From Escherichia coli (GTDB lineage: Bacteria > Pseudomonadota > Gammaproteobacteria > Enterobacterales > Enterobacteriaceae), in the NCBI RefSeq assembly GCF_041886205.1, contig NZ_CP169029.1: a stretch of 64,000 nt of DNA; one strand, 5' to 3'. The position numbers were made by a program, and so were the translations under genes. Below the pieces are notes generated by a model. It was not told where the DNA came from, did not search any database, and saw nothing but the letters and a program-made list of their open reading frames with translations. Below, piece by piece: positions 1-57,110 of the stretch (position 1 is the stretch's first letter; every line of letters starts with the position of its first letter).

Positions 1-148
1 GATCGCGCCCATACAGCCACTCCAGCGCGTGGTCTATCTGCCGGGCGTTGTCATCCAGCCCACAAAGGGTCGTTTCTGCCGCTTCGCCAAGAATTAATCG
101 CCAGCGTTGTAGCTCACGGGTGGTCAGAAGATCGTTCAGTTCAGACAT
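1..148 (-). CDS. yehP: N-terminal fragment of YehP (vWA-domain partner of the MoxR ATPase); gene runs off the window edge
   Basis: Minus-strand ATG at 148..146 translates MSELNDLLTTRELQRWRLILGEAAETTLCGLDD.... It overlaps the yehM stop in an ATGTCTGA arrangement. Identity is from gene order and recollection; the vWA domain itself is outside the window. Confidence 0.5.
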   Translation of the reverse strand, partial: MSELNDLLTTRELQRWRLILGEAAETTLCGLDDNARQIDHALEWLYGRD

Positions 149-2420
149 GGAAAACTCCCCAGTGTTGCAGCGATGCCAGTGCCTGCTGTTCGAGTTGTTG
201 ATGATGTGCAATGGCTTGCGGTGGACAATGCAACGGTATTTGCAGCGCCGAAACGGGAAGTTGCGCCAGTTGATAATGCTCAAGCACCTGATGCGCCAGC
301 GTCCCGCGTTCTCGTGGTGGTAGCCAGGCCATCGCCGCGCGTAAATCGGGCAGGGCATTGATAAAATCGGCATCACTCAGTTGATTTAAATGACTGCTGA
401 AACCGGCGATAAATGCCGGCTGACAAGCCAGTTGATGACGGGCTAATGCCAGCAAACCGTGCAGCGCCTCGCCGGATTGGGCCGGGGATAACTGCGTCAG
501 CATTGTCAGCGCCGCTTCGGCACTAGCGTTGGGATGTTCCAGACGCATCAGTGCGCCAAGAGTCGCGCCGCGATCCAGCGCCGGGGCATGAATCGCCTGA
601 CTGCGGCGCTCCAGTAAGGCTACCGCCGCAGAAAGCGAAACGCCGGATAAGTTAACGCCGCTATGTAGATCGCGCAGGATATGGCAAAGCGCTTGCCAGC
701 TATGCAGGTGAGCGTGAAACTCCTTTTCATCCGGTCTGCCGTTGGATTCACACAGCCACAGCGTGCGATCGATAGCCGCGCATAACGTCGTTTGTAATAT
801 CTGCGCGCCTTGCATACCGCTAATTTCATCCAGCCGCCATAAGGCATATAGCACTTCCAGCGCCTGGCCCATTTCGGCAAATTGATTTTCCTGGGCGATT
901 AATAATGTGAGTTGTTCCAGTAATTGCTCACTAAAGCTCGCCAGGCCCGCTAACGCCGCCTGGCTAAGACATGCGGTAATGCTGCCGATTCCACCCGCGT
1001 CCAGCATATCGGCTTCTAATTTATTGCGTGCGGCTTCCTGGAGTGTTGCACCAAAGCAGGCGGCCTCAATCAATGCCGCATGCTGGCTAAGCGGGCGGGT
1101 TAATTTCCAGCGTTCTTCACCGTTGCCTGCAAGTGTCAGTGTACTTCCCTGCTGGCGTAAAATCCCTGGGATCTCCAGTATTGCCAGCCGATGTAACACC
1201 TGACTTTGCGCTAGTCCATTGGGGTTAAAGCGATTTAAGGTAAGCTGCGCCGGAAGAGAGATTCCGGTACGTTCCAGTTCGCAGGTGACATCTTTTGGCA
1301 GAGGCGGTTGTGGCGTGGAGGGGGCAAGTTTACCGAATCCGTCACCCGCTAATGTGTCTATCAACGTTAGCAGAATCGGATCGGTATCGGGATGAATAAC
1401 TCCGCGATAGCTCCACGGCAACGGCGCGTTCAAGGCTTCTTTAATCAGCGAGCCTGCTATGGCATCCAGCCAGTCAGTGCGTAACGGTAGTGTATGACCG
1501 CGCAACTGTGCCAGTGCCATTGCATGCAGATGTGCGGCAGCCATATCAGCGGTAGAAGCGGGCAATTTGTGCTGGCGCAAACGGGTGAGAACCGTTTTTA
1601 GCAGTTGTTCTCCCGCCTGCTGTAAGCCCCACTGCCAGCACCAGTTTTGCCAGACCGGAGCAGGCATTCCGGAAAGGTATCCTGCCAGCACATCAAGGCG
1701 CTTTTCGCTGTATGGCGTGAGATAACAACCTGTAACGGCATCATCCTGTGAGGGCAATTCTGGCTTGTTAATTTCCTGCGGGCATTCGCGCCACATTTTT
1801 GCCAGTGCCGGAGCGTGCCAGCCACCGCAGACGACTAACACGTCGCCATTGTTTTGCAGCATCGCCCATCCAATCCAGCGGGCCATAAAGGCTTCGCGCT
1901 GACGATTGAGAGCATCTCCGGGGGAATCGCCCCGCAGTTGGGCAAAATAGTGCGCCAGCGCAGAGGGTAATGCAGTTTGCTGGCTTTCATCTTCGAATAA
2001 GTGATCCCACAGGGTGTCGCTGTTATCCATGCGGGTGGCACGCAGCAGCAAGGCCTGGCTTTCCTCTTGCGTATCAGGCGAATCGTCCTCTTCTTCACTC
2101 TGCGCCCAGCAAGGCAAATCGATGAAGTAAGTTTGTGCCTGAATACGACGTGCGGCTTGTAGCGCCTGCCACTCCGGCGAAAATTCAGCAAATGGCGTCC
2201 AGGCACCGCGCCCGGGGGCCGTACCGTCCTGATACTGGCAATAACTGTAAATAGCTACCGGAAGCTGGTGGGCTAAAAACAGTTCGTCTACCCGGTCATT
2301 AAAATCAGCCGGGCCTTCAATCAACACGTATCGTGGCCGCTGGCTTTCGATTAACGATTTCACCAGCCGGGCGCTGGCCGGGCTATGATGCCGGATGCCG
2401 ACAATTAACGGCTCGCTCAT
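141..2420 (-). CDS. yehM: YehM, large uncharacterised protein (about 760 aa) encoded with the MoxR ATPase
   Basis: Long ORF in the track; start placed at internal ATG 2420 (MSEPLIVGIRHH) with an upstream aggaaag RBS, 10 nt after the yehL stop. The track's upstream extension would overlap yehL. Confidence 0.8.
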   Translation of the reverse strand: MSEPLIVGIRHHSPASARLVKSLIESQRPRYVLIEGPADFNDRVDELFLAHQLPVAIYSYCQYQDGTAPGRGAWTPFAEFSPEWQALQAARRIQAQTYFIDLPCWAQSEEEDDSPDTQEESQALLLRATRMDNSDTLWDHLFEDESQQTALPSALAHYFAQLRGDSPGDALNRQREAFMARWIGWAMLQNNGDVLVVCGGWHAPALAKMWRECPQEINKPELPSQDDAVTGCYLTPYSEKRLDVLAGYLSGMPAPVWQNWCWQWGLQQAGEQLLKTVLTRLRQHKLPASTADMAAAHLHAMALAQLRGHTLPLRTDWLDAIAGSLIKEALNAPLPWSYRGVIHPDTDPILLTLIDTLAGDGFGKLAPSTPQPPLPKDVTCELERTGISLPAQLTLNRFNPNGLAQSQVLHRLAILEIPGILRQQGSTLTLAGNGEERWKLTRPLSQHAALIEAACFGATLQEAARNKLEADMLDAGGIGSITACLSQAALAGLASFSEQLLEQLTLLIAQENQFAEMGQALEVLYALWRLDEISGMQGAQILQTTLCAAIDRTLWLCESNGRPDEKEFHAHLHSWQALCHILRDLHSGVNLSGVSLSAAVALLERRSQAIHAPALDRGATLGALMRLEHPNASAEAALTMLTQLSPAQSGEALHGLLALARHQLACQPAFIAGFSSHLNQLSDADFINALPDLRAAMAWLPPRERGTLAHQVLEHYQLAQLPVSALQIPLHCPPQAIAHHQQLEQQALASLQHWGVFHV

Positions 2421-2430
2421 GCATCTTTCC

Positions 2431-3519
2431 TCACGGCAGGCGGTGGCGGGCTTGATAATAAGCCTGCCAGTGAGCTTCTTTATGTGTGGCGACTCGCTGT
2501 TCGAAGTAACGGCGCAGACGAGCGCGATCTTCTTCGTTATCTTTGACGATGGTTCCGGCAATACAGTCCACCAGATCGGCTGGCTCACCTGCGCGATTCG
2601 CTAAAAACCAGGCGCGGACGCCCACAGCGTGGGCCACGTTCACGGCTTCAGCGGTGGACATAATCGCTGTTAGTGTATCCATTGACGTTTTCTTTTCGCC
2701 GTTGGCACGCAGATCGCGGAAGGTGCGGACCAGTAACTCCAGTACCGCGTCAGGCACTTTATGCGGAATACCGCTATGGGCCAGCAAACGCGCCGAAGCA
2801 CTGGCGACCAGTTCCAGCTCCTGAGCGAAATCCATAATCGGAAAGACAGTTTCAAAATCGAAGCGACGCTTTAGCGCAGCACTCATCTCATTGACGCCGC
2901 GATCGCGCGTATTGGCAGTGGCAATAATATTAAAGCCTTCCCGCGCATAGAGTTGACTGGCTTCACCAGTGAGTTCCGGCACCGTCATCACCCTGTCAGA
3001 AAGCATACCTAACAGACAGTCTTGCACTTCCAGCGGTGTACGCGTTATCTCTTCAAAACGGACGATTTTGCCGTCGCGCATTCCCTGGTAAAGCGGGGCA
3101 GGGACCAGCGCTTCCGTTGATGGACCATGATTGATAAGCAGAGCGTAGTTCCAGCCGTACTTGATTTGATCTTCAGTGGTAAATGCGCCGCCCTGGATGG
3201 TTAACCCGGCATCGCCGCTAATAGCGGTTGCCAGTAATTCAGACAGGAGAGATTTTGCGGTGCCCGGTTCCCCCACCAACATCAAACCGCGCCCGGTGGC
3301 AAGAGTGACTAACATACGTTCGACAGCAGAGGGACTAATCACGACTTTACGGCTAATATTTTGCGCGCTATCGCCAAGGATAAAAGCACGTGCCGCAGGC
3401 AAACTTAACTGCCAACCGGGCGGGCAAGGTGCGTTATCATTTTGTTTTAATTTTGCCAGTTCATCGGCGTATAACACAGCGGCAGGCGGACGCTGCAGAT
3501 GATTATTCTGCGGTGACAT
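2431..3519 (-). CDS. yehL: MoxR-family AAA+ ATPase
   Basis: Walker A motif LVGEPGTAKS and a Walker B-like FEEITRT segment are visible. Start taken at MSPQNNHLQRPP (ATG 3519), giving about 362 aa. Confidence 0.85.
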   Translation of the reverse strand: MSPQNNHLQRPPAAVLYADELAKLKQNDNAPCPPGWQLSLPAARAFILGDSAQNISRKVVISPSAVERMLVTLATGRGLMLVGEPGTAKSLLSELLATAISGDAGLTIQGGAFTTEDQIKYGWNYALLINHGPSTEALVPAPLYQGMRDGKIVRFEEITRTPLEVQDCLLGMLSDRVMTVPELTGEASQLYAREGFNIIATANTRDRGVNEMSAALKRRFDFETVFPIMDFAQELELVASASARLLAHSGIPHKVPDAVLELLVRTFRDLRANGEKKTSMDTLTAIMSTAEAVNVAHAVGVRAWFLANRAGEPADLVDCIAGTIVKDNEEDRARLRRYFEQRVATHKEAHWQAYYQARHRLP

Positions 3520-3629
3520 ATATTCATCCCTGAAATGTATTAATGAAATAAACGATATTTTACGCGCAATAAATGTTTGGCGCATTAGTTGTTTGAGCGA
3601 AAAATATCTGGAAAGCAGATCACAGTAAA

Positions 3630-3662
3630 TAAAAAAACCTGCTGGTGAGGCAGGTTCTTTTA
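3630..3662 (-). terminator. Rho-independent terminator downstream of yehK
   Basis: Minus-strand hairpin cctgcctcaccagcagg followed by a run of seven T. Confidence 0.6.
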
Positions 3663-3825
3663 TTTACTATTTTCAGGCCTAACACCACAGCCTGTGCAAC
3701 ATCGTGTTCCAACGAACGAATTATAACCACGGCTGGACCCCGTTGCAATTAAGATAATGAGATTTATAATCCAGACCGTTGGGACGTTGCGCCGGATCGG
3801 ACCAATTTGAATTATTTAGAGTATA

Positions 3826-4143
3826 TTATTCTATTTCTTGGTTGAATATATTCTGTAGTTCACGATTAAAAATTGCTATTACAGTTTCAGGTGATTCACC
3901 TCGTAATTTCCGCTCATCAATACACTCATCTCTTATATAAATCAACGCATCATTTATTAGCGGGTCAGCATCTTCTCGATCACGTTGATGAAATGTTGGA
4001 TGTAGCCGGAATCGCTCCAGTCGATAGACGGAACCTGTAAATAATTCAGAGCATTTATGGATCTCAAGTCTGAAGGAAAACGGATCTTCAGGTACAGGGA
4101 CCTCATAATCGTAAATAGCAACCAGCTCTTTTTGCACGATCAT
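3826..4143 (-). CDS. yehK: YehK, small uncharacterised protein (105 aa)
   Basis: ORF of the expected size and position, directly downstream of yehI. Confidence 0.8.
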   Translation of the reverse strand: MIVQKELVAIYDYEVPVPEDPFSFRLEIHKCSELFTGSVYRLERFRLHPTFHQRDREDADPLINDALIYIRDECIDERKLRGESPETVIAIFNRELQNIFNQEIE

Positions 4144-4202
4144 CGCTTTCCCGTTGGTAAGTCGTGTTGAAAACGGGCAGTCGCATCACTGCCCGTTGTG
4201 TT

Positions 4203-7200
4203 TTAATGGAAAATGACGTCGGGTGCGCTTAACGCCTCACTCAAATCAAACACATCAAGTGCGGCAAAAGTGACGGATTTATTGTCACGGTACACCCGAA
4301 GAGAACGGAAGCTCATCAGCGCTTTGCTATCAGCACTGTAGTAGTTAAAACCGGGTGAAAACTTAAGGACCAGCCGGTACTCACCTAAGTCATAGACAAA
4401 TGCGTCCTCATAGCCTGACTCCCAGCCTTTGTATCGCATTCCCATAAGCTGCCCAACGGTAGCGGATTTACCTTCCCAGCGAGTCAGGCTGTTACTGGTT
4501 GACTCGTCAGGTGTGAGCAGCACCGTGCGGCGCGACAACTGGCGAAAAGGCGGCATAATTTCGTAATCGGCAAAAAGCTGTGCAAATTCACTGCGCATTT
4601 CTGCTGTCATTTCTAACGGGTGGGCAATGCCAATCAGAGCGTCCGCAGGCAGGTCAATGGGCTCATCTTGTGCATTGCAGAATTCCCCCTCTGCGGCCAC
4701 ACGAAAGGTGTTGAGTAAACGACGTGGTTCATTTGCCGGATAAACCCCCCATATTAATCGCTGGGTAACCAGGCGGGTAAAGGGATGATTAACAAAAAGA
4801 GAATGAAAATCTGCCAGCGACCAGCGTCGGGTGGTGCGTAGGGCAGTTTCAAGACGCGGGAGCAGGTTTTTGCTCACCTGAGTGGCATCTTTTTTTAGCC
4901 CTTTTAGTCGGGCCAGTGCCTCGGGCGCTTTCAGTTGATCGTCATCGGCGCGCAACCGGGGAACACTTTTCTGGCGAACGTTTTGTTGATCGTAGATAAC
5001 CGGGTTGAGGTTTTCATCGAAGCGAACGGTAAACTGCCGGGGACCAAAATCAAAAATCAACGCCTGCGGATCATCAAGACCCAGTGTTGGGACTAATCTG
5101 TCCGCTAACTCTTCCTGGCTTAGCCCGCGATTTTCTGCGACCACCTGAAGAAATTCCGCTGCGTTTTCACGTAATGAAGAGGATTTCGCCCGTTGTGATA
5201 CATGATGCAGCTGTATCAGCGCCATATCATTATTCATCAGGGTGAGTATATTCAGACCACTGACAGCACGGGCAGATTTGCCTTCTTGTGGCCAAGCGAG
5301 GATCTGTGTTGTTAGATCCCGTGCCGTGCTTTCGTCACCAAAGAGACTTAACGCCAGAAATGCCCAGTTGTCTTTTGCGGGGGCACCAGCTTGTTGCCAT
5401 GCGGTGAAGAGATCCCAGGCAAAAGCTGCCAGCGTTTGCGGCTGGCAGAACGTTTTCAGTTGTTCCAGCCCGCTATAAAAACGTCCCCCTTGGGTAAAGC
5501 GCAGCATTTCGCCAATAATTTCCAGAGCGTCATCGGTAACAGGTTGATTATTAGTGATAAGGCGCGGCCTGGACCACATTTGCGGATGCCAGAAATCAGG
5601 GGCTTTTGGAATGCGTGCCGGGTAAATCTCTATTGGACTCTGTTTAAGTAATTGTTCCAGGGCAGGCCATACATCAGCGCGATCCCAGCGGTTTGCCACG
5701 GTTTGTAGTAATACGCCATGTCCCTGTTCGTAAAGTAAACGCAGGGCAAGTAATGCAGCTTCGCTATTATCGCTGGATTTAGTGAAGACAAGAGGGATAA
5801 GTGCAGTAGCCGTATGTTCCGGCCATTGTAAAATCCACTGGCGAGCCAGATCACGCTGCGCCGCGAAACGTCGCCAGACGCGGGCAACAGGCAGCGCCAG
5901 TTCTGTTGCGCCGAAATGAATCAGCAGCGGAAATATCTCTTGTGGATGTCGGGCAAAGGCGGTGTTTAATCCAGGCAAAGCATCGGTAGCCAGCACACTT
6001 AACAGATATTCCACCCCAGTGTAATGAAAATCAGCATCGACAATTTGTTGCCAGCACGATACCGCCATTTCGCGCGGCATCTGCGCGATAAGGTACAGAT
6101 TCCAAATCCCCCAACGCTTTTCATTACCATAGTAAAATTCGTGCTGAAAAGTTCGCCACCCTTCCATCAACGCAATGCAATCTTGTGCCAGTAATGCTTT
6201 GGTGGCTTCTTCACGATACTGTTTAGATTTGGCCTGATGCGCGTGATAAGTACGCAATAGTCCTATTGATGTGTATTCTTGCAGTTGCTGAGCATCAAAG
6301 GCATCCAACTGTCCATTAAGAAGATGCTTATTAAATTCCAGGCTATGAACGTCAAAACCTAATTCCCGCAAGAAGGTATCCGCCCCTCTCTTAGCAATAC
6401 GTTCGTCAAAAGACATGGCGCTAAAATGGTCAATTGCAGTTTGCTGTTCCGGCGTCCAGTGTTTATTCGGCGACCTGTACGTTTGCGGTGCAAGCGTAAG
6501 ATCAGGCAGCGAAAAGTGAGGTATGGAAGTCTTTTTCTTCCTCCCACGCCATGGTGGTGAAACGAGGATTTCAGGCATTTGGCTGTTATCGGTACTATCA
6601 ATAACCGGTTTGGGCGGTGCCAATAAATAACTATTCAGTACTGCCCGGGCTTGAGTACTTAACCACTGCATCACCTCTTCTGCCAGTTGTGGCTGCGATG
6701 CCATCAGCGTTTGTAACAGCGTACGCCAGTATTCATCTCGAGCTTTTTGCTGGGCAGGCAGCTTTTTGTCTTCGATGATTGGATAACCAGGGCGGGCTGG
6801 TGGTTCTTTTAACGCCAACAGTTCTGCCAGTGCCGCGAGCGTCGCGTGGGGGAAGTTTTTACTGTATTTAGCCACACGTTGCAGGCTGGGTTTGTTTTTA
6901 TCAGCCACCAGTAGCAAGGTGCGGATGACCTGCGGATGGTTAATTTGTACCAACAGACTGCCGCAATCTTCTTTATGGGCATACATCGCGAGGCGCGGAA
7001 TGGCTGCCAGTCCTTGTTCGCGCAAAAGGGCGGCGCAGGCCGCGTAGCCGAAGTGGTTTTCATGCGACATGTAGCTGGCTTCGCGATCGCTAAATATATC
7101 CTGACTCCAGTAGTGATCGAGTTTCCTCACCGCTGTGGGGTCATTAGCAACAACTTTTAGCCACTCCTTAGAATGATAATGAGTCCGTGGGCATTCAAGG

Positions 7201-7850
7201 CCTATCAACTCATTGGCGATTTCTGGTTTTTCCGGGAGGATCAGCGCAATAAAAGGGCGGCGAACTTTGGTTATTCCTGGCAGTGCGGCAATGAGTTTGT
7301 CGGCGCAACGCTGCCAGCAGCTTTCCTCTGCCAGAGAGAGATGCTTACGCAGTCGGAGATCGAATTCGTTATAGGTTTCTGATCGATAACCATAGCCATA
7401 GTCCTCGTTCTGATACTGCAATGTCACTACCAGAGGATCACTCTCATAACACCGCGCAATAAACTGGCGTGCAATCACCACCTCAGTCGCATATTCCAGT
7501 CCCTCTTGTTGGACGATTTCGTCGAGCAACTGTTGGCTGTCATTTTGCGCGATACAGGCTAGTGCCGCCATTGTGCGGGCCGGGACTGAGGGTTTGTGTT
7601 CGCCGATCAAGTTGATGGCCTGCGTAATGGCGGACTGCCACTCCAGTGAAAAATTTTCATAACGCCAGACAATGTTTTTTTTCTTCTCAGCTTTTTGTAG
7701 CAATTCATCACCCAGTGTCTGAATGATGCTTTCAGTGATAACAGGCACCGGTTCGCCCGGCCATTTGCGATGACTGAGTGGTGTTTTGCCTTTTTTATAT
7801 TTCAGTTCCAGTTGGGCGTTATCCGCCAGCCACGGTAATTCCTTGTCCAT
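4203..7850 (-). CDS. yehI: YehI, giant DUF4132-family protein (1215 aa), paralog of MolR without the N-terminal WGR region
   Basis: ORF starts MDKELPWLADNAQ, which aligns to MolR at about residue 100 (LLPWLADGAQ). The C-terminal two-thirds is colinear with both molR copies. Confidence 0.9.
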   Translation of the reverse strand: MDKELPWLADNAQLELKYKKGKTPLSHRKWPGEPVPVITESIIQTLGDELLQKAEKKKNIVWRYENFSLEWQSAITQAINLIGEHKPSVPARTMAALACIAQNDSQQLLDEIVQQEGLEYATEVVIARQFIARCYESDPLVVTLQYQNEDYGYGYRSETYNEFDLRLRKHLSLAEESCWQRCADKLIAALPGITKVRRPFIALILPEKPEIANELIGLECPRTHYHSKEWLKVVANDPTAVRKLDHYWSQDIFSDREASYMSHENHFGYAACAALLREQGLAAIPRLAMYAHKEDCGSLLVQINHPQVIRTLLLVADKNKPSLQRVAKYSKNFPHATLAALAELLALKEPPARPGYPIIEDKKLPAQQKARDEYWRTLLQTLMASQPQLAEEVMQWLSTQARAVLNSYLLAPPKPVIDSTDNSQMPEILVSPPWRGRKKKTSIPHFSLPDLTLAPQTYRSPNKHWTPEQQTAIDHFSAMSFDERIAKRGADTFLRELGFDVHSLEFNKHLLNGQLDAFDAQQLQEYTSIGLLRTYHAHQAKSKQYREEATKALLAQDCIALMEGWRTFQHEFYYGNEKRWGIWNLYLIAQMPREMAVSCWQQIVDADFHYTGVEYLLSVLATDALPGLNTAFARHPQEIFPLLIHFGATELALPVARVWRRFAAQRDLARQWILQWPEHTATALIPLVFTKSSDNSEAALLALRLLYEQGHGVLLQTVANRWDRADVWPALEQLLKQSPIEIYPARIPKAPDFWHPQMWSRPRLITNNQPVTDDALEIIGEMLRFTQGGRFYSGLEQLKTFCQPQTLAAFAWDLFTAWQQAGAPAKDNWAFLALSLFGDESTARDLTTQILAWPQEGKSARAVSGLNILTLMNNDMALIQLHHVSQRAKSSSLRENAAEFLQVVAENRGLSQEELADRLVPTLGLDDPQALIFDFGPRQFTVRFDENLNPVIYDQQNVRQKSVPRLRADDDQLKAPEALARLKGLKKDATQVSKNLLPRLETALRTTRRWSLADFHSLFVNHPFTRLVTQRLIWGVYPANEPRRLLNTFRVAAEGEFCNAQDEPIDLPADALIGIAHPLEMTAEMRSEFAQLFADYEIMPPFRQLSRRTVLLTPDESTSNSLTRWEGKSATVGQLMGMRYKGWESGYEDAFVYDLGEYRLVLKFSPGFNYYSADSKALMSFRSLRVYRDNKSVTFAALDVFDLSEALSAPDVIFH

Positions 7851-7859
7851 GCTCTTTCC

Positions 7860-10800
7860 TTATTCAAACAGGGCTTCAATATCGTTAATTAGCTCGCTGG
7901 CGGTGATGGCATCGAGTACGGAGAACTGCGCTTCCTGTGTTGAATTACTCCCCCAGCCATAGCTTTCCGCTTTGCCTTCCCATAACCACAGCTTGCTTAA
8001 GAGCTGCTCAGCGCTAAGTTCGGCTGGTGACATACCCACCGCAAAACCTTCGTCGATTTCCATGATTAACGACCAGCGACCCAAAGGTTTGATCATCCAT
8101 CCGATCCAGCCTCCATCCTGTGGTTCGCCCTTTATCCAGCCTTTATTCGCCAGCCCCATGACCCGACCACTCGGGCATTTTCTGCCTGCCCAGCGGGTCA
8201 GTTCACTGGCATTGCGCTCGGCTTCTGTCAGGGCGTAGCTGTTACGGTCGAGCTGGCGGAACGGTGGTAGCAGTTCGTAGTCGGCAAAAAGCTGACCAAA
8301 GGCGGCAGCATCCGTTGGTGATATTTCCAGAACGTGAGGAGTGCCGATAGAGATATCGCCTTCCGGCAGGGTGAAAAGATCATCGTCAGCGGTGCTGTAG
8401 CTGTTATCTTCTGCTACGCGAAAGCAAGCCAGTAGCTGGTTTTCGGCGCTATAAACGCCCCAAATCAGACGGCGGGTTAAGTGACGAACCAGCGGATGCT
8501 CAACCAGGAAGAGCTGGAAGTTTTCCAGCGACCAGCGGCGGCGCAGGCACATGGCGGATTCCAGCCTTGCTACCTGCTGGGCGGCGACGGTACGCGCATC
8601 TTTTTTCAGCAGTTTGTAGCGGTTAACAGCATCGTTCGCCTGTGATTCATCATCGCTTTTGTTTGGTTTGGGCAGGTCTTTCAGACGGCTGCCGGAAGCG
8701 TCACGCACAAACGGTTTTAAGGTTTCATCAAAGCTGACGGTGAACTGGCGTGGGCCGAAATCCAGCAGCAACGAACCGTTATCATCCAGACCGAGATCTG
8801 GTGCTAACCGATCTTCAAGCTCCGCCACCGTGAGTTCGCGGCTCTCGGCAATATCGGCAATTTTCTCTTTTGCCCGCTCCTGTAAAGCTTTGAATTTCAG
8901 TTTCTGAGCAATGCCGTTAAGCTGCATCAGAGCAATATCACTACCGATAGCGGCGAGGATATCAAGCCCGACGGTGGCGCGTTTATGCTGGGATTCGCCA
9001 GGCCAGGCGCGGATTAATGGCGTCAGTTTGCGGGCGGTGTCATCGTTACCGAGAACGCCTAACGCAGTGAACGCCCAACTCTCTTTCGACGGCGCGCCAG
9101 CGGTCTGCCAGGCGGTAAACAGATCCCAGGCAAATTCAGCCAGTGAGTCGGCGGTACAGGCGTCTTTCACCTGTAATATTCCCGGATACAGAACCTCTTC
9201 CTGAGGGAAGCGGAGCATTTCACCGAGGTGGAGGAGGGCTCTATCTGGCAGTGATTGGGCGTTTGCTTTTAATACCGGGCGCGTCCAGAGCGATGGTTGA
9301 TAAAAGGCCGGAAGAGTGGGGATTTTTGTCGGGTGATTATCTAAGGGATCGAGCGCAAGCAGAGCGTTCACCGCATCGGTTACTTCCGGCTGGTTATAAC
9401 GTCGGGCGATTTCTTGCAGTAATGGCTGATGACCGTTTTCGGTAAGCATACGCAAGGCAGCGCGGGCGTTATCCTGTGCTTCACCGGCTTTGCCGAGCGC
9501 CGCAGGCAGCAGGCCGGTAAGGGCATGTTCCGGGTATTTCAACAGCCAGCTACGGGCGTTTTCGCGTAGCGTTTTGAGTTTGTTGAAGGCACGGGCAATC
9601 AGTGGCGCTAATTCGATAGCCGCAAAATATTGTGCTACAGGCAGCGCTTCTTGCGGATAGCGAGATGCTGAGTGGATAAAACCTGTTAAACCAGCAAGTC
9701 GAAGATGCAACATTACTTGTGTTGCACCTGTATGTGGTTCTTTACTAAGGATGTTCCACATCTCGATAGCTTTATTAATGGGTAAAACATGGAGTGAAGA
9801 AAGATTCCATTCGCCCTGATAAGGGGAGTTATAGGACTTAAAAGCATCAATCAGCGCTGAATAATCTTCACGCTGCAAGGCATCCAGTGCTATTTCTGGA
9901 ACATCAATATAGCCTCTATGTTTGTTCCAATCCCAGCGGTTGAATCCCAGGGAGGTCAGAAAAGCTTTTTCTCCCTCAGCTTGCTGATGAGGTTGCCAGT
10001 TATGCTGCACTTGCAGTGTTTTGCTTTTTGTTTCATTTATTGTACAGAAGGATTCTAGGGATAATGGTGCTAAATCCAGCACCGAAATCGTCGATTTTTT
10101 CTTTTTAGCCAGCCAGGGCGGTGAGACTAATACGGCAGGCAGCATATCAGCGTTCGCATAAACTGAAGGTTGTGTCAGTTGTTGCTGGCATGACTTAAGA
10201 ACGGTAACTGCCGGGGCAGATAGCCAGGAGATTACCCGTTCTGCTAATGTTGGTTGTGAGATAAGCATTGTCATTAGCATCATGCGCCAGCGCTTTTCAT
10301 CTTTTTTTGCCAGAAGTTCTGCTAATGCCGCCAGCGCTGCATGTGGAAAGCGAACGAAAGCCTTTGTCATGCGATCGTGGCAACGCTTTCCCTGCTCGCT
10401 TGCATGGATAAGTAGTGTAAGTGCCTGCGGGTGGTTGATATGCATCAACACTTCACCACATGTGTCACCAGCAGCGTAAGGAGCAAAACGGGCCAGCGCA
10501 GCGACACCTTGCTCCTTGAGTATCGTTGCGCACCAGATTTTACCTCCGTAATAATCATCAAATACCTGCCCAGGCTGTCCTGGATAGTATTTTCCCAGTT
10601 CTGCCAATACCTGCTCGTCAGCGGCCGTCAGTTTTAGCCATTCCAGCGCATATAACCCTTTTTGTCCGCAAAGATGTCTGGCAATCTCATGAGCTATTTC
10701 TGGTTTTTCCGGCAACAATAGTGCAACCAGCGGCTGGTGCCAGGTGGGCATGTTTCCGAGAGCGGCAATCAGTTTGTCGGCGCAGCGCTGCCATACATCG

Positions 10801-11618
10801 TCATTTGCAAGTGAGAGATGCTTACGCAGGCGCATTTCAACCGAAGCGAAGCGTAACAGATAGCCAGGCTGCCTGTTATCCGGGGTAACCGTAATGAGAT
10901 GGGCATCATAATCCCAGTCGAAGCGGATGAATTGCAATGCAATGACAACCTCAGTGGCATATTCCAGACCACCTTCCTGGACAATTTGATCCATTAACTC
11001 TTCATGATCGTTACGATTGAAGCCTTGTTCCAGCGCAACCAGTACCGCCAGTACCATCGGAGGTAGCGTGGTGCTAATTGGCGAGTCGATAAGGCCTACT
11101 GCTTGTGTAATTGCCTGCTGCCAGTCGAGTGAACAGGTACTGTAATCGAAGGTGAGCACCTTTTTAAAACGCCGGTGAGTATTCGCGGCAACGGTGCGTA
11201 GCAGGGTTAATTCATCCTCCTGCTGCACCGGATCGCCAGGCCAGCGTCGATGACTGAGTGTGGTTGGCGCAATCTCTGTCGGTAACATGATTTGGGCACC
11301 GTCTGCCAGCCAGGGGAGGAGGTCACCAGCAAATGCTGGTTTGTCTTGTGGCAAAGGGGTAATTTCAGGGCATTCAATAACCTGGCCGGGTGCAAATGTC
11401 GCTGTCATCACGGATACTTCTTCTACGTAGCCCTTTTTTGTTTTCTCCGCAATCAGCTTCAGCTCCGCTTTTTCCGCCGCCGCAGCATCTGCAAAGCTTT
11501 TTACCTGACTTTGCCCGTTACTGCCGACTTTACCCCAGTTAATATGCAGCTCGTTTCCCTGCTGCTCCACCGCCCAGAATTTATGTGATTTTTCGTCCTG
11601 ATAAATATAGGTTTTCAT
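7860..11618 (-). CDS. molR: MolR-like giant protein (1252 aa), intact, with N-terminal WGR-like domain plus DUF4132-type body
   Basis: N-terminus MKTYIYQDEKSHKFWAVEQQGNELHINWGKVG carries a WGR-like motif. There is a 9-nt gap to yehI. To my recollection molR is a fragmented pseudogene in K-12 but is intact here. Confidence 0.85.
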   Translation of the reverse strand: MKTYIYQDEKSHKFWAVEQQGNELHINWGKVGSNGQSQVKSFADAAAAEKAELKLIAEKTKKGYVEEVSVMTATFAPGQVIECPEITPLPQDKPAFAGDLLPWLADGAQIMLPTEIAPTTLSHRRWPGDPVQQEDELTLLRTVAANTHRRFKKVLTFDYSTCSLDWQQAITQAVGLIDSPISTTLPPMVLAVLVALEQGFNRNDHEELMDQIVQEGGLEYATEVVIALQFIRFDWDYDAHLITVTPDNRQPGYLLRFASVEMRLRKHLSLANDDVWQRCADKLIAALGNMPTWHQPLVALLLPEKPEIAHEIARHLCGQKGLYALEWLKLTAADEQVLAELGKYYPGQPGQVFDDYYGGKIWCATILKEQGVAALARFAPYAAGDTCGEVLMHINHPQALTLLIHASEQGKRCHDRMTKAFVRFPHAALAALAELLAKKDEKRWRMMLMTMLISQPTLAERVISWLSAPAVTVLKSCQQQLTQPSVYANADMLPAVLVSPPWLAKKKKSTISVLDLAPLSLESFCTINETKSKTLQVQHNWQPHQQAEGEKAFLTSLGFNRWDWNKHRGYIDVPEIALDALQREDYSALIDAFKSYNSPYQGEWNLSSLHVLPINKAIEMWNILSKEPHTGATQVMLHLRLAGLTGFIHSASRYPQEALPVAQYFAAIELAPLIARAFNKLKTLRENARSWLLKYPEHALTGLLPAALGKAGEAQDNARAALRMLTENGHQPLLQEIARRYNQPEVTDAVNALLALDPLDNHPTKIPTLPAFYQPSLWTRPVLKANAQSLPDRALLHLGEMLRFPQEEVLYPGILQVKDACTADSLAEFAWDLFTAWQTAGAPSKESWAFTALGVLGNDDTARKLTPLIRAWPGESQHKRATVGLDILAAIGSDIALMQLNGIAQKLKFKALQERAKEKIADIAESRELTVAELEDRLAPDLGLDDNGSLLLDFGPRQFTVSFDETLKPFVRDASGSRLKDLPKPNKSDDESQANDAVNRYKLLKKDARTVAAQQVARLESAMCLRRRWSLENFQLFLVEHPLVRHLTRRLIWGVYSAENQLLACFRVAEDNSYSTADDDLFTLPEGDISIGTPHVLEISPTDAAAFGQLFADYELLPPFRQLDRNSYALTEAERNASELTRWAGRKCPSGRVMGLANKGWIKGEPQDGGWIGWMIKPLGRWSLIMEIDEGFAVGMSPAELSAEQLLSKLWLWEGKAESYGWGSNSTQEAQFSVLDAITASELINDIEALFE

Positions 11619-43552: not shown

Positions 43553-43639
43553 AAAAAATAAGCCCGTGTAAGGGAGATTACACAGGCTAAGGAGGTGGTT
43601 CCTGGTACAGCTAGCATTTTATGGGTTATGTTTTTCAGC
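43553..43639 (-). ncRNA. cyaR: CyaR (RyeE) Hfq-dependent sRNA
   Basis: Minus-strand sequence GCTGAAAAACATAACCCATAAAATGCTAGCTGTACCAGGAACCACCTCCTTAGCCTGTGTAATCTCCCTTACACGGGCTTATTTTTT, recognised from memory, including the terminator hairpin. Confidence 0.85.
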
Positions 43640-43723
43640 GAAACGGATGATAACCTTAATAAATGCAGCTGTATGTGATCGGTTTCTAAGAATTTTCCAT
43701 CCGGGAAAAATAATCGAAATTAA

Positions 43724-56974: not shown

Positions 56975-57110
56975 AAGCCCCTCCCGAGGAAGGGGCCATA
57001 AATAAGGAAAGGGTCATGATGAAGCTACTCATCATCGTGGTGCTCTTAGTCATAAGCTTCCCCGCTTACTAAGACTACCAGGGCGGGGGAAACCCCGCTC
57101 TACCCTCACT
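56975..57110 (-). ncRNA. Sib-family antisense antitoxin RNA, copy 1 (ends approximate)
   Basis: Antisense to ibs; minus-strand TTGACA at 57138..57143 with a -10-like tacttt 17 nt away; hairpin plus U-rich stretch near 56975. Ends are inferred, not mapped. Confidence 0.55.
57016..57072 (+). CDS. Ibs-family type I toxin (18 aa), copy 1
   Basis: MMKLLIIVVLLVISFPAY. Confidence 0.85.
   Translation: MMKLLIIVVLLVISFPAY

Follow-up and report, generated by a model that had tools for sequence, protein, structure and literature searches.

Conserved stop-start overlaps in the yehLMPQ operon of Escherichia coli suggest translational linkage of yehM, yehP and yehQ

Introduction

In several established systems, CoxD-CoxE, NorQ-NorD, CbbQ-CbbO and midasin/Rea1 among them, an AAA_5/MoxR-type ATPase is tied to a protein with a von Willebrand factor A (VWA) domain that carries a metal ion-dependent adhesion site (MIDAS). 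The yehLMPQ genes of Escherichia coli resemble these systems in pairing such an ATPase (YehL) with such a VWA protein (YehP), and they differ from them by the extra DUF5682, SWIM and, usually, WGR/DUF4132 partners. Here, we report on the gene junctions of yehLMPQ, of which yehL, yehM and the start of yehP lie at the beginning of a 64,000-nucleotide (nt) stretch of E. coli contig NZ_CP169029.1, called the window below. E. coli has one other MoxR-VWA unit, ravA-viaA, a single operon in which the ATPase gene precedes the VWA gene and the two genes overlap by 7 nt in an out-of-frame stop-start arrangement. It has two genes instead of four, no DUF5682 or SWIM partner, and an ATPase of another MoxR subfamily; in yehLMPQ, unlike ravA-viaA, the yehM gene separates the ATPase gene from the VWA gene. 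Seven subfamilies of MoxR have been distinguished, and the one named after E. coli YehL has this protein as its type member (PMC3893208).

The closest described junctions are those of hyfH-hyfI, ydbH-ynbE and menD-menH (Huber et al. 2019, 2023), which are likewise co-directional operon genes with a stop-start overlap and a Shine-Dalgarno (SD) sequence within the upstream gene. In E. coli, every native overlapping pair that Huber et al. tested was translationally coupled, and coupling became weaker with distance. The efficient stop-start distances run from about -8 to +6 nt (PMC10666635); within E. coli, coupling is most efficient at -4 to +3 and falls off faster for longer overlaps than for positive spacings (PMC12548453; PMC10666635). 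For spacings of +10 to +14 the effects are context-dependent, ranging from none to abolished coupling (PMC12548453; PMC10666635), and Huber et al. considered genes at +9 to +12 more likely to be started independently on their own SD (PMC10666635). Junctions of both kinds are common: 707 of the 2,987 unidirectional E. coli pairs lie within -8 to +6, the most frequent overlaps being -4, -1 and -8 in that order, while the +9 to +12 class holds 203 pairs, 194 of the 201 with characterised transcripts being polycistronic (PMC10666635). The yeh junctions themselves already stand in the K-12 annotation, and the overlap and +10 classes and the MoxR-VWA pairing have been described before; what is modestly new here is the strength with which the overlaps around yehP are conserved across phyla.

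An earlier, sequence-only reading of this locus had taken the yehM-yehP overlap and the short yehL-yehM spacer as signs of translational coupling and had argued from them for stoichiometric co-production of the ATPase, YehM and the VWA partner, as expected of a complex. Our analysis favors a narrower view. The junctions probably are internal boundaries of a core, H-NS-silenced E. coli operon that is transcribed as one mRNA, with ribosomes re-initiating at yehM-yehP and at yehP-yehQ, and they would provide linkage of synthesis but not a fixed ratio.

The junctions of yehLMPQ

Coordinates are those of the window, in which yehL, yehM and yehP all lie on the minus strand, a strand left unstated in the earlier reading; gene names and boundaries were checked against the RefSeq annotation of E. 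coli wlxctx60 and of K-12 MG1655. Positions 1-4200 match E. coli wlxctx60 at 100% identity, and some 5,200 further complete E. coli genomes match at 95-99%. Both annotated genomes share one layout, with yehL-yehM at +10 nt, yehM-yehP at -8 nt and yehP-yehQ at -4 nt. The last of these junctions (TCATGA, with an ATGA overlap) and yehQ itself lie beyond the window start.

At the yehM-yehP junction, the start codon of yehP (ATG, 148-146) and the stop codon of yehM (143-141) fall within the 8-nt overlap ATGTCTGA (141-148, minus strand), which bears out the overlap described earlier. The context is GGGGAGTTTTCC ATG TC TGA A, such that yehM ends in CAT GTC TGA (His-Val-stop) and yehP begins with ATG TCT GAA. 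The frame had been given incorrectly: the TGA was placed in the +1 frame of ATG TCT GAA and is actually in its +2 (that is, -1) frame, yehP being the gene that lies in the +1 frame relative to yehM. At the yehL-yehM junction, the yehL stop codon TGA (2433-2431) is followed by a 10-nt spacer (2430-2421; stop codon and spacer together 2421-2433, minus strand) and the yehM ATG (2420-2418), in the context CTG CCG TGA GGAAAGATGC ATG AGC. The 10-nt gap is therefore as reported, whereas the ribosome-binding site aggaaag placed inside it is not, since the first a belongs to the TGA stop codon and the spacer holds only GGAAAG. Among 5,426 complete E. coli genomes, 5,330 contain a 61-mer covering the yehM-yehP junction and 5,216 one covering the yehL-yehM junction, in each case at 95% identity or more; either one occurs in at least 96% of the genomes.

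With respect to distance, yehM-yehP (-8) and yehP-yehQ (-4) are inside the efficient stop-start range, and yehL-yehM (+10) is outside. Set against the pairs of Huber et al., yehP-yehQ is a canonical ATGA overlap and yehM-yehP, at -8, is of the overlap type that ranks third in frequency; the difference is that the E. coli pairs tested there had a -1 overlap, -8 being assumed to be permissive, and that the +10 spacing of yehL-yehM falls in the class regarded as likely independent.

Conservation of the junctions in relatives

We compared 80 loci that encode relatives of YehM with 37-95% identity; they come from 44 genera of the Gamma-, Beta- and Deltaproteobacteria and the Actinobacteria. The downstream starts in these loci were chosen by homology, codon type and anti-SD pairing, and the position of the upstream stop codon was not used. 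The order yehL-yehM-yehP-yehQ is kept wherever the flanking DNA suffices, except in one locus that shows neither yehP nor yehQ (L062) and in four loci with insertions. An overlap of yehM and yehP was found in 64 of 78 loci and 37 of 44 genera (-4 in 47 loci, -1 in 8 and -8 in 6), and one of yehP and yehQ in 66 of 78 loci and 36 of 44 genera (-4 in 63); at both junctions the overlap is mostly ATGA or GTGA. The -8 variant of yehM-yehP is that of Escherichia and is also seen in Iodobacter and Thorsellia, while Klebsiella and Serratia have -1, Erwinia +9 or +10, and Burkholderia about +100. The junction beside the ATPase gene, yehL-yehM, is the least constrained of the three, with an overlap in 30 of 80 loci, a distance of 0 to +12 nt in 28 more, and a gap above 30 nt in 17.

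As a control in the same loci and by the same method, the junction between the DUF4132 gene and yehL lies within -14 to +12 nt in only 16 of 67 loci. The tightness of yehM-yehP and yehP-yehQ is thus not a product of general compaction or of the method, and the conservation of these two overlaps is well beyond chance. Their retention, when the DUF4132-yehL boundary has stayed loose, suggests selection that ties the synthesis of YehP and YehQ to the translation of YehM in time and place. Such selection would fit YehM, YehP and YehQ acting together with the ATPase. The yehLMPQ genes, with a WGR/DUF4132 gene in most relatives, make up a widely conserved, uncharacterised module, and the pattern marks yehM-yehP and yehP-yehQ as selected boundaries, DUF4132-yehL and partly yehL-yehM not, which gives a hint as to which of its proteins could be produced and purified jointly.

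In every other respect the junctions are an ordinary operon signature, and only their conservation is unusual. Distances of -8 to +10 nt are found for about 27% of the same-strand gene pairs of E. coli. For the window the figure is 15 of 36 same-strand pairs, eight of them overlapping, counted on the annotation of the nearest genome, which is collinear with the window except for an IS1 element and extra ibs/sib repeats.

The four loci with insertions carry extra genes exactly between yehM and yehP. Judged by eye, the insert in Xenophilus (L073, 8336-9084) is a Phd/ParE-like toxin-antitoxin pair, and that in an Azoarcus metagenome-assembled genome (L048, 4295-5633) consists of a BrnT/BrnA-like and a HigB/HigA-like pair; the other two inserts (L047, 8527-9567; L042, 8370-9137) encode uncharacterised proteins of 346 and 255 residues, respectively. 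Considering these inserts and the zor-orz element of E. coli, the yeh cluster seems to attract toxin-antitoxin insertions.

Evidence for a single silenced transcription unit

On the minus strand of window positions 1-3519, which hold yehL, yehM and the start of yehP, no sigma-70-like sites were found, and the six weak terminator-like sites inside the unit equal the expectation from shuffled sequence (5.4 ± 2.6). The genes are thus co-directional neighbors with no intervening promoter or terminator signal above chance, and after yehQ there is a gap of at least 124 nt to yehR in the RefSeq annotation. In hns/stpA mutants, yehL and yehM were up-regulated together, and an intergenic region close to yehL and yehM is occupied by H-NS in K-12 (PMC3686432). 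This joint derepression, the sole expression evidence found, agrees with one silenced operon. We infer that co-transcription of yehLMPQ as one mRNA is strongly supported and near certain. Because of H-NS silencing, coupling and complex formation should be accessible only under derepressed or heterologous conditions.

Initiation signals and proposed termination-reinitiation

Duplex energies with the anti-SD sequence were ranked against a positional null. The SD core of yehM is AGGA (2431-2428), whose first A is shared with the yehL stop codon and which stands about 6-7 nt from the ATG; its duplex energy is -6.2 kcal/mol, in the top 7% of the null. For yehP, an SD-like GGGGAG lies inside the yehM coding sequence (155-160, minus strand) about 5-6 nt before the ATG and gives -7.9 kcal/mol, in the top 2%. 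For yehQ, GGAG inside yehP gives -6.6 kcal/mol at a spacing of 10 nt, in the top 5%. The first gene, yehL (ATG at 3519-3517), has an SD-like AGGGA (3527-3531, minus strand; -4.9 kcal/mol, spacing 6 nt). The opening energies of the initiation regions are unremarkable, with yehM at the 64th, yehP at the 28th and yehQ at the 20th percentile.

From the distance classes and the conservation across genera, termination-reinitiation coupling is plausible at yehM-yehP and at yehP-yehQ. For yehL-yehM, in the +10 class, coupling is doubtful, and initiation at the gene's own ribosome-binding site is more likely. Of the coupling put forward in the sequence-only reading, that at one of the two junctions stays plausible. 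We propose the following mechanism. The four genes would be carried on a single mRNA, on which yehM would be translated mainly by de novo initiation at its own SD, with ribosomes that end at the adjacent yehL UGA adding at most modestly. A ribosome ending at the yehM UGA would stand 5 nt past the yehP AUG and could re-initiate there, aided by GGGGAG. At the AUGA of yehP and yehQ the same termination-reinitiation would take place, the stop codon being 1 nt past the next AUG. Both yehP and yehQ would then be translated by de novo as well as by re-initiating ribosomes, and the junctions would fix linkage, not ratio, the amounts of protein being governed by how efficiently ribosomes re-initiate, by SD strength and by turnover of the proteins.

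Several observations weigh against this mechanism. At -8 the yehM-yehP junction is on the side where efficiency is lost faster, since overlaps beyond -4 lose coupling more quickly than positive spacings do. The GGGGAG element falls on the codons for Trp754 and Gly755, both invariant in YehM, so that constraint on the protein and constraint on a ribosome-binding site are inseparable. In the relatives, SD strength had entered the start calls, which biases their SD energies upward. A structural gate was considered and rejected: a 12-bp hairpin over the yehL stop codon and the yehM SD is no better than those of shuffled sequences (z = -0.74). Finally, overlaps in the window also join proteins without a known complex (mdtD-baeS, thiD-thiM, yegT-yegU-yegV and pphC-yegL), and with good SDs and relatively unstructured starts at yehP and yehQ, independent initiation alone could suffice.

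These points lead to the strongest alternative, in which there is no functional coupling, each cistron starts on its own SD, and compaction of the operon has produced the overlaps through neutral drift of starts and stops. The strength of the three downstream SD duplexes, each among the top 2-7% of null values, would be expected in this case, as would initiation regions of yehP and yehQ that are not structurally occluded; the +9 to +12 class has been judged likely to be independently initiated, overlaps between functionally unlinked genes are frequent in the window, and Erwinia, Burkholderia and the four loci with insertions have lost the yehM-yehP overlap and yet kept the cluster. On the other hand, neutral drift does not explain why the overlaps at yehM-yehP and yehP-yehQ are kept in 36-37 of 44 genera and in four bacterial classes when DUF4132-yehL is loose, nor why an in-frame ATGA or GTGA, which by a rough estimate would arise by chance in about 3% of cases, is observed in 60-81%. 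Moreover, the overlapping native pairs of Huber et al. were coupled without exception. We therefore regard independent initiation throughout as possible but rather unlikely, and prefer linked translation of yehM, yehP and yehQ.

Stoichiometry and complex formation

The proteins are those of a MoxR-type unit, in agreement with the earlier reading. The yehL gene (2431-3519, minus strand) encodes a MoxR-family AAA+ ATPase of 362 residues, annotated by RefSeq and assigned to the YehL subfamily (Pfam AAA_5, E = 1.2e-34), and yehM (141-2420, minus strand) encodes a DUF5682 protein of 759 residues (annotation and Pfam, E = 1.7e-98). The first 49 codons of yehP (MSELNDLL...) occupy positions 1-148 on the minus strand; the full gene (locus L001, 13053-14189) encodes a CoxE-type VWA/MIDAS protein of 378 residues (Pfam VWA_CoxE, E = 8.3e-71), and YehQ matches Pfam SWIM (E = 9.1e-08). 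In 80 orthologues the Walker A motif of YehL, GEPGTAKS, is invariant, as is FEE at the Walker B position. The MIDAS motif of YehP, DQSGS...T...D, is complete and is kept in 75 orthologues. Two features of a MoxR/VWA system, namely an AAA_5 ATPase with its nucleotide-binding motifs and a VWA gene with an intact MIDAS in one operon, are found here. Given the near-universal co-occurrence of YehL, YehM, YehP and YehQ and the MoxR-VWA precedent, a functional association of the four is very likely.

It is a larger step to hold, as the sequence-only reading did, that coupling at both junctions enforces stoichiometric production of YehL, YehM and YehP as subunits of one complex. Several facts speak for it. 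The four genes co-occur in order in all informative loci but L062, YehP has its complete MIDAS, and a sequence search of solved structures gave the AAA domains of midasin as the best matches for YehL. In midasin, an AAA ring and a MIDAS domain are part of one chain. Speaking against it, AAA+ ATPases are hexamers that act on substoichiometric partners, and the spacing at yehL-yehM, +10 in E. coli, varies in relatives and exceeds 30 nt in 17 of the 80 loci. No natural fusions of yeh proteins were present among the 80 loci. Fusions of YehL-YehM, YehM-YehP and YehM-YehQ (P0002, P0003, P0008, P0011 and P0013) were considered as Rosetta-stone evidence and discarded, since they occur as singletons, in assemblies with about 96% identity to E. 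coli, and are likely frameshift errors at tight junctions.

The published precedents cut both ways. MoxR ATPases do bind VWA partners, and RavA and ViaA interact physically, but a cell contains about 350 molecules of RavA and about 90 of ViaA (PMC3893208). With a ratio of about 4:1 in spite of the 7-nt overlap, this pair makes clear that overlapping genes need not give equal output. Likewise, heteromeric complexes are 4.5-fold overrepresented among tight pairs (-8 to +10), but known complexes account for only 30.4% of such pairs in E. coli (PMC10666635); for the remaining 70% or so no shared complex is known, and the positive predictive value of a tight junction for a complex is only about 30%. 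A literature text search, which did not extend to genome-wide synthesis-rate or abundance surveys, turned up no ribosome-profiling, abundance, interaction or co-purification data on yeh proteins. One 'interaction' match for YehQ was a false match from an entrapment database, and the other text matches to yeh names were mostly name collisions. Taken together, the yeh junctions do not imply equal dosing or one complex: stoichiometric co-production is not supported, and a single complex of YehL, YehM and YehP enforced in this way appears improbable.

A more specific picture can be drawn, in which the persistent overlaps would mark YehM (with a TraB/ChaN/TIKI-like hydrolase-fold domain and a helical scaffold), YehP (a MIDAS VWA protein) and YehQ (a SWIM zinc-finger protein) as an obligate, co-translationally assembled sub-complex that is remodelled by a YehL MoxR hexamer. 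This would be part of an H-NS-silenced five-gene machine, usually with WGR/DUF4132, that could serve as a nucleic acid-sensing stress or conflict system from Enterobacteria to Actinobacteria. We put it forward as a speculation of low probability.

The last alternative, that yehP or yehM in fact starts at another position and the overlap is an annotation artefact, is very improbable: the yehM frame is indeed open for 56 codons upstream of its annotated ATG, but yehP has no alternative in-frame ATG, GTG or TTG in its 49 window codons, conserved residues begin at residue 13-20 of YehP and residue 4 of YehM, with orthologue alignments starting from residues 1-6, the RefSeq and K-12 annotations concur, and independent start calls in relatives fall on the stop codon in most loci.

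Features of the individual proteins

At Walker B, YehL has hhhFEE in place of the hhhDE that is canonical for AAA+ ATPases, a difference by which the YehL subfamily may be recognised. The N-terminal domain of YehM is predicted to have a ChaN/TraB/TIKI/erythromycin-esterase-like fold, which would be followed by HEAT/ARM-like helical repeats. A sub-threshold match to Pfam TraB_PrgY_gumN (E = 0.11) points to the same fold. In the orthologue alignment YehM has two invariant motifs, G8-x-R-H11-H12 and G199-G-x-H202, which, as a lead, may be likened to the paired GxxH motifs of the TIKI/TraB enzymes; Glu35 and Glu143 are further invariant residues of the domain. YehQ bears two CxC...CxH SWIM-like motifs. 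In this lineage it has 666 residues (L001, 14186-16186) as against 614 in K-12 MG1655 (L083, 17101-18945), and the gap between yehQ and yehR is 281 nt in K-12 as against 124 nt here; K-12 yehQ is probably truncated at its 3' end. For YehM, YehP and YehQ, no solved structure was matched by sequence. A search of the PADLOC-DB defence models with seven proteins gave nothing significant, the sole match being DpdF (E = 0.007, 13 bits). Membership in the MoxR-vWA-beta-propeller ternary system of Kaur and Aravind was rejected because the bpMoxR score of 18.7 bits is below the threshold of 27 bits.

The upstream boundary of the operon

Between yehK and yehL there is a 306-nt spacer that is AT-rich (37-44% GC, compared with 52-60% in the genes). 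It contains a full-length small RNA (sRNA) of the OrzO-P family, OrzP-like (3706-3631, minus strand; Rfam RF02083, 99.9 bits), with a promoter-like site from the promoter scan at 3748-3720 (minus strand) and a very stable intrinsic terminator at about 3665-3631 (minus strand; fold z = -7.9). This terminator had been considered as that of yehK, an assignment we dropped because Rfam places it within the OrzP-like sRNA. It ends 111 nt before the yehL ATG and insulates yehLMPQ from yehK and the DUF4132 genes, transcription from upstream being largely stopped. The promoter of yehLMPQ, expected to be weak and its own, must consequently sit in 3630-3520, unless the operon is served by read-through; no consensus-like promoter was found in that interval.

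K-12 carries an identical sRNA element, which has no RefSeq annotation. No open reading frame (ORF) for the 29-residue Zor toxin was found near the sRNA in the window, which makes this an 'orz-only' locus. In MG1655 an orphan OrzP is known to be expressed (PMC11264685), and mapping of zor-orz has placed this locus between yehI and yehL (PMC2887945).

Upstream of yehK lie three tandem DUF4132 paralogues (4203-11618, minus strand, and beyond; L001, 1-8998), the second of which also carries a WGR domain at its N-terminus. None of the three is disrupted here, and K-12 has yehF and the pseudogene yehH in their place. In 68 of 81 related loci, a single WGR/DUF4132 gene stands directly upstream of yehL on the same strand, which points to a conserved ancestral module of probably five genes; the DUF4132 genes of Escherichia are set apart from yehLMPQ by yehK and the orz sRNA.

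Other features of the window

A second vWA cluster is found near 56.8-63 kb of the window (L084, 1698-7151), with yegD (Hsp70-like), yegI (protein kinase), pphC (phosphatase) and yegL (vWA); pphC and yegL overlap by 4 nt. An IS1 element with its InsA and InsB ORFs (22942-23709) interrupts the fimbrial usher gene yehB and is absent from the near-identical NZ_AP045833.1. Four Sib antitoxin sRNAs stand in tandem (57001-58128, minus strand), while the annotation of the nearest complete genome lists two ibs toxin genes, which points to extra ibs/sib repeats in this strain. The window also holds the CyaR sRNA (43556-43641, minus strand) and the thiMD thiamine pyrophosphate (TPP) riboswitch (27212-27308, plus strand).

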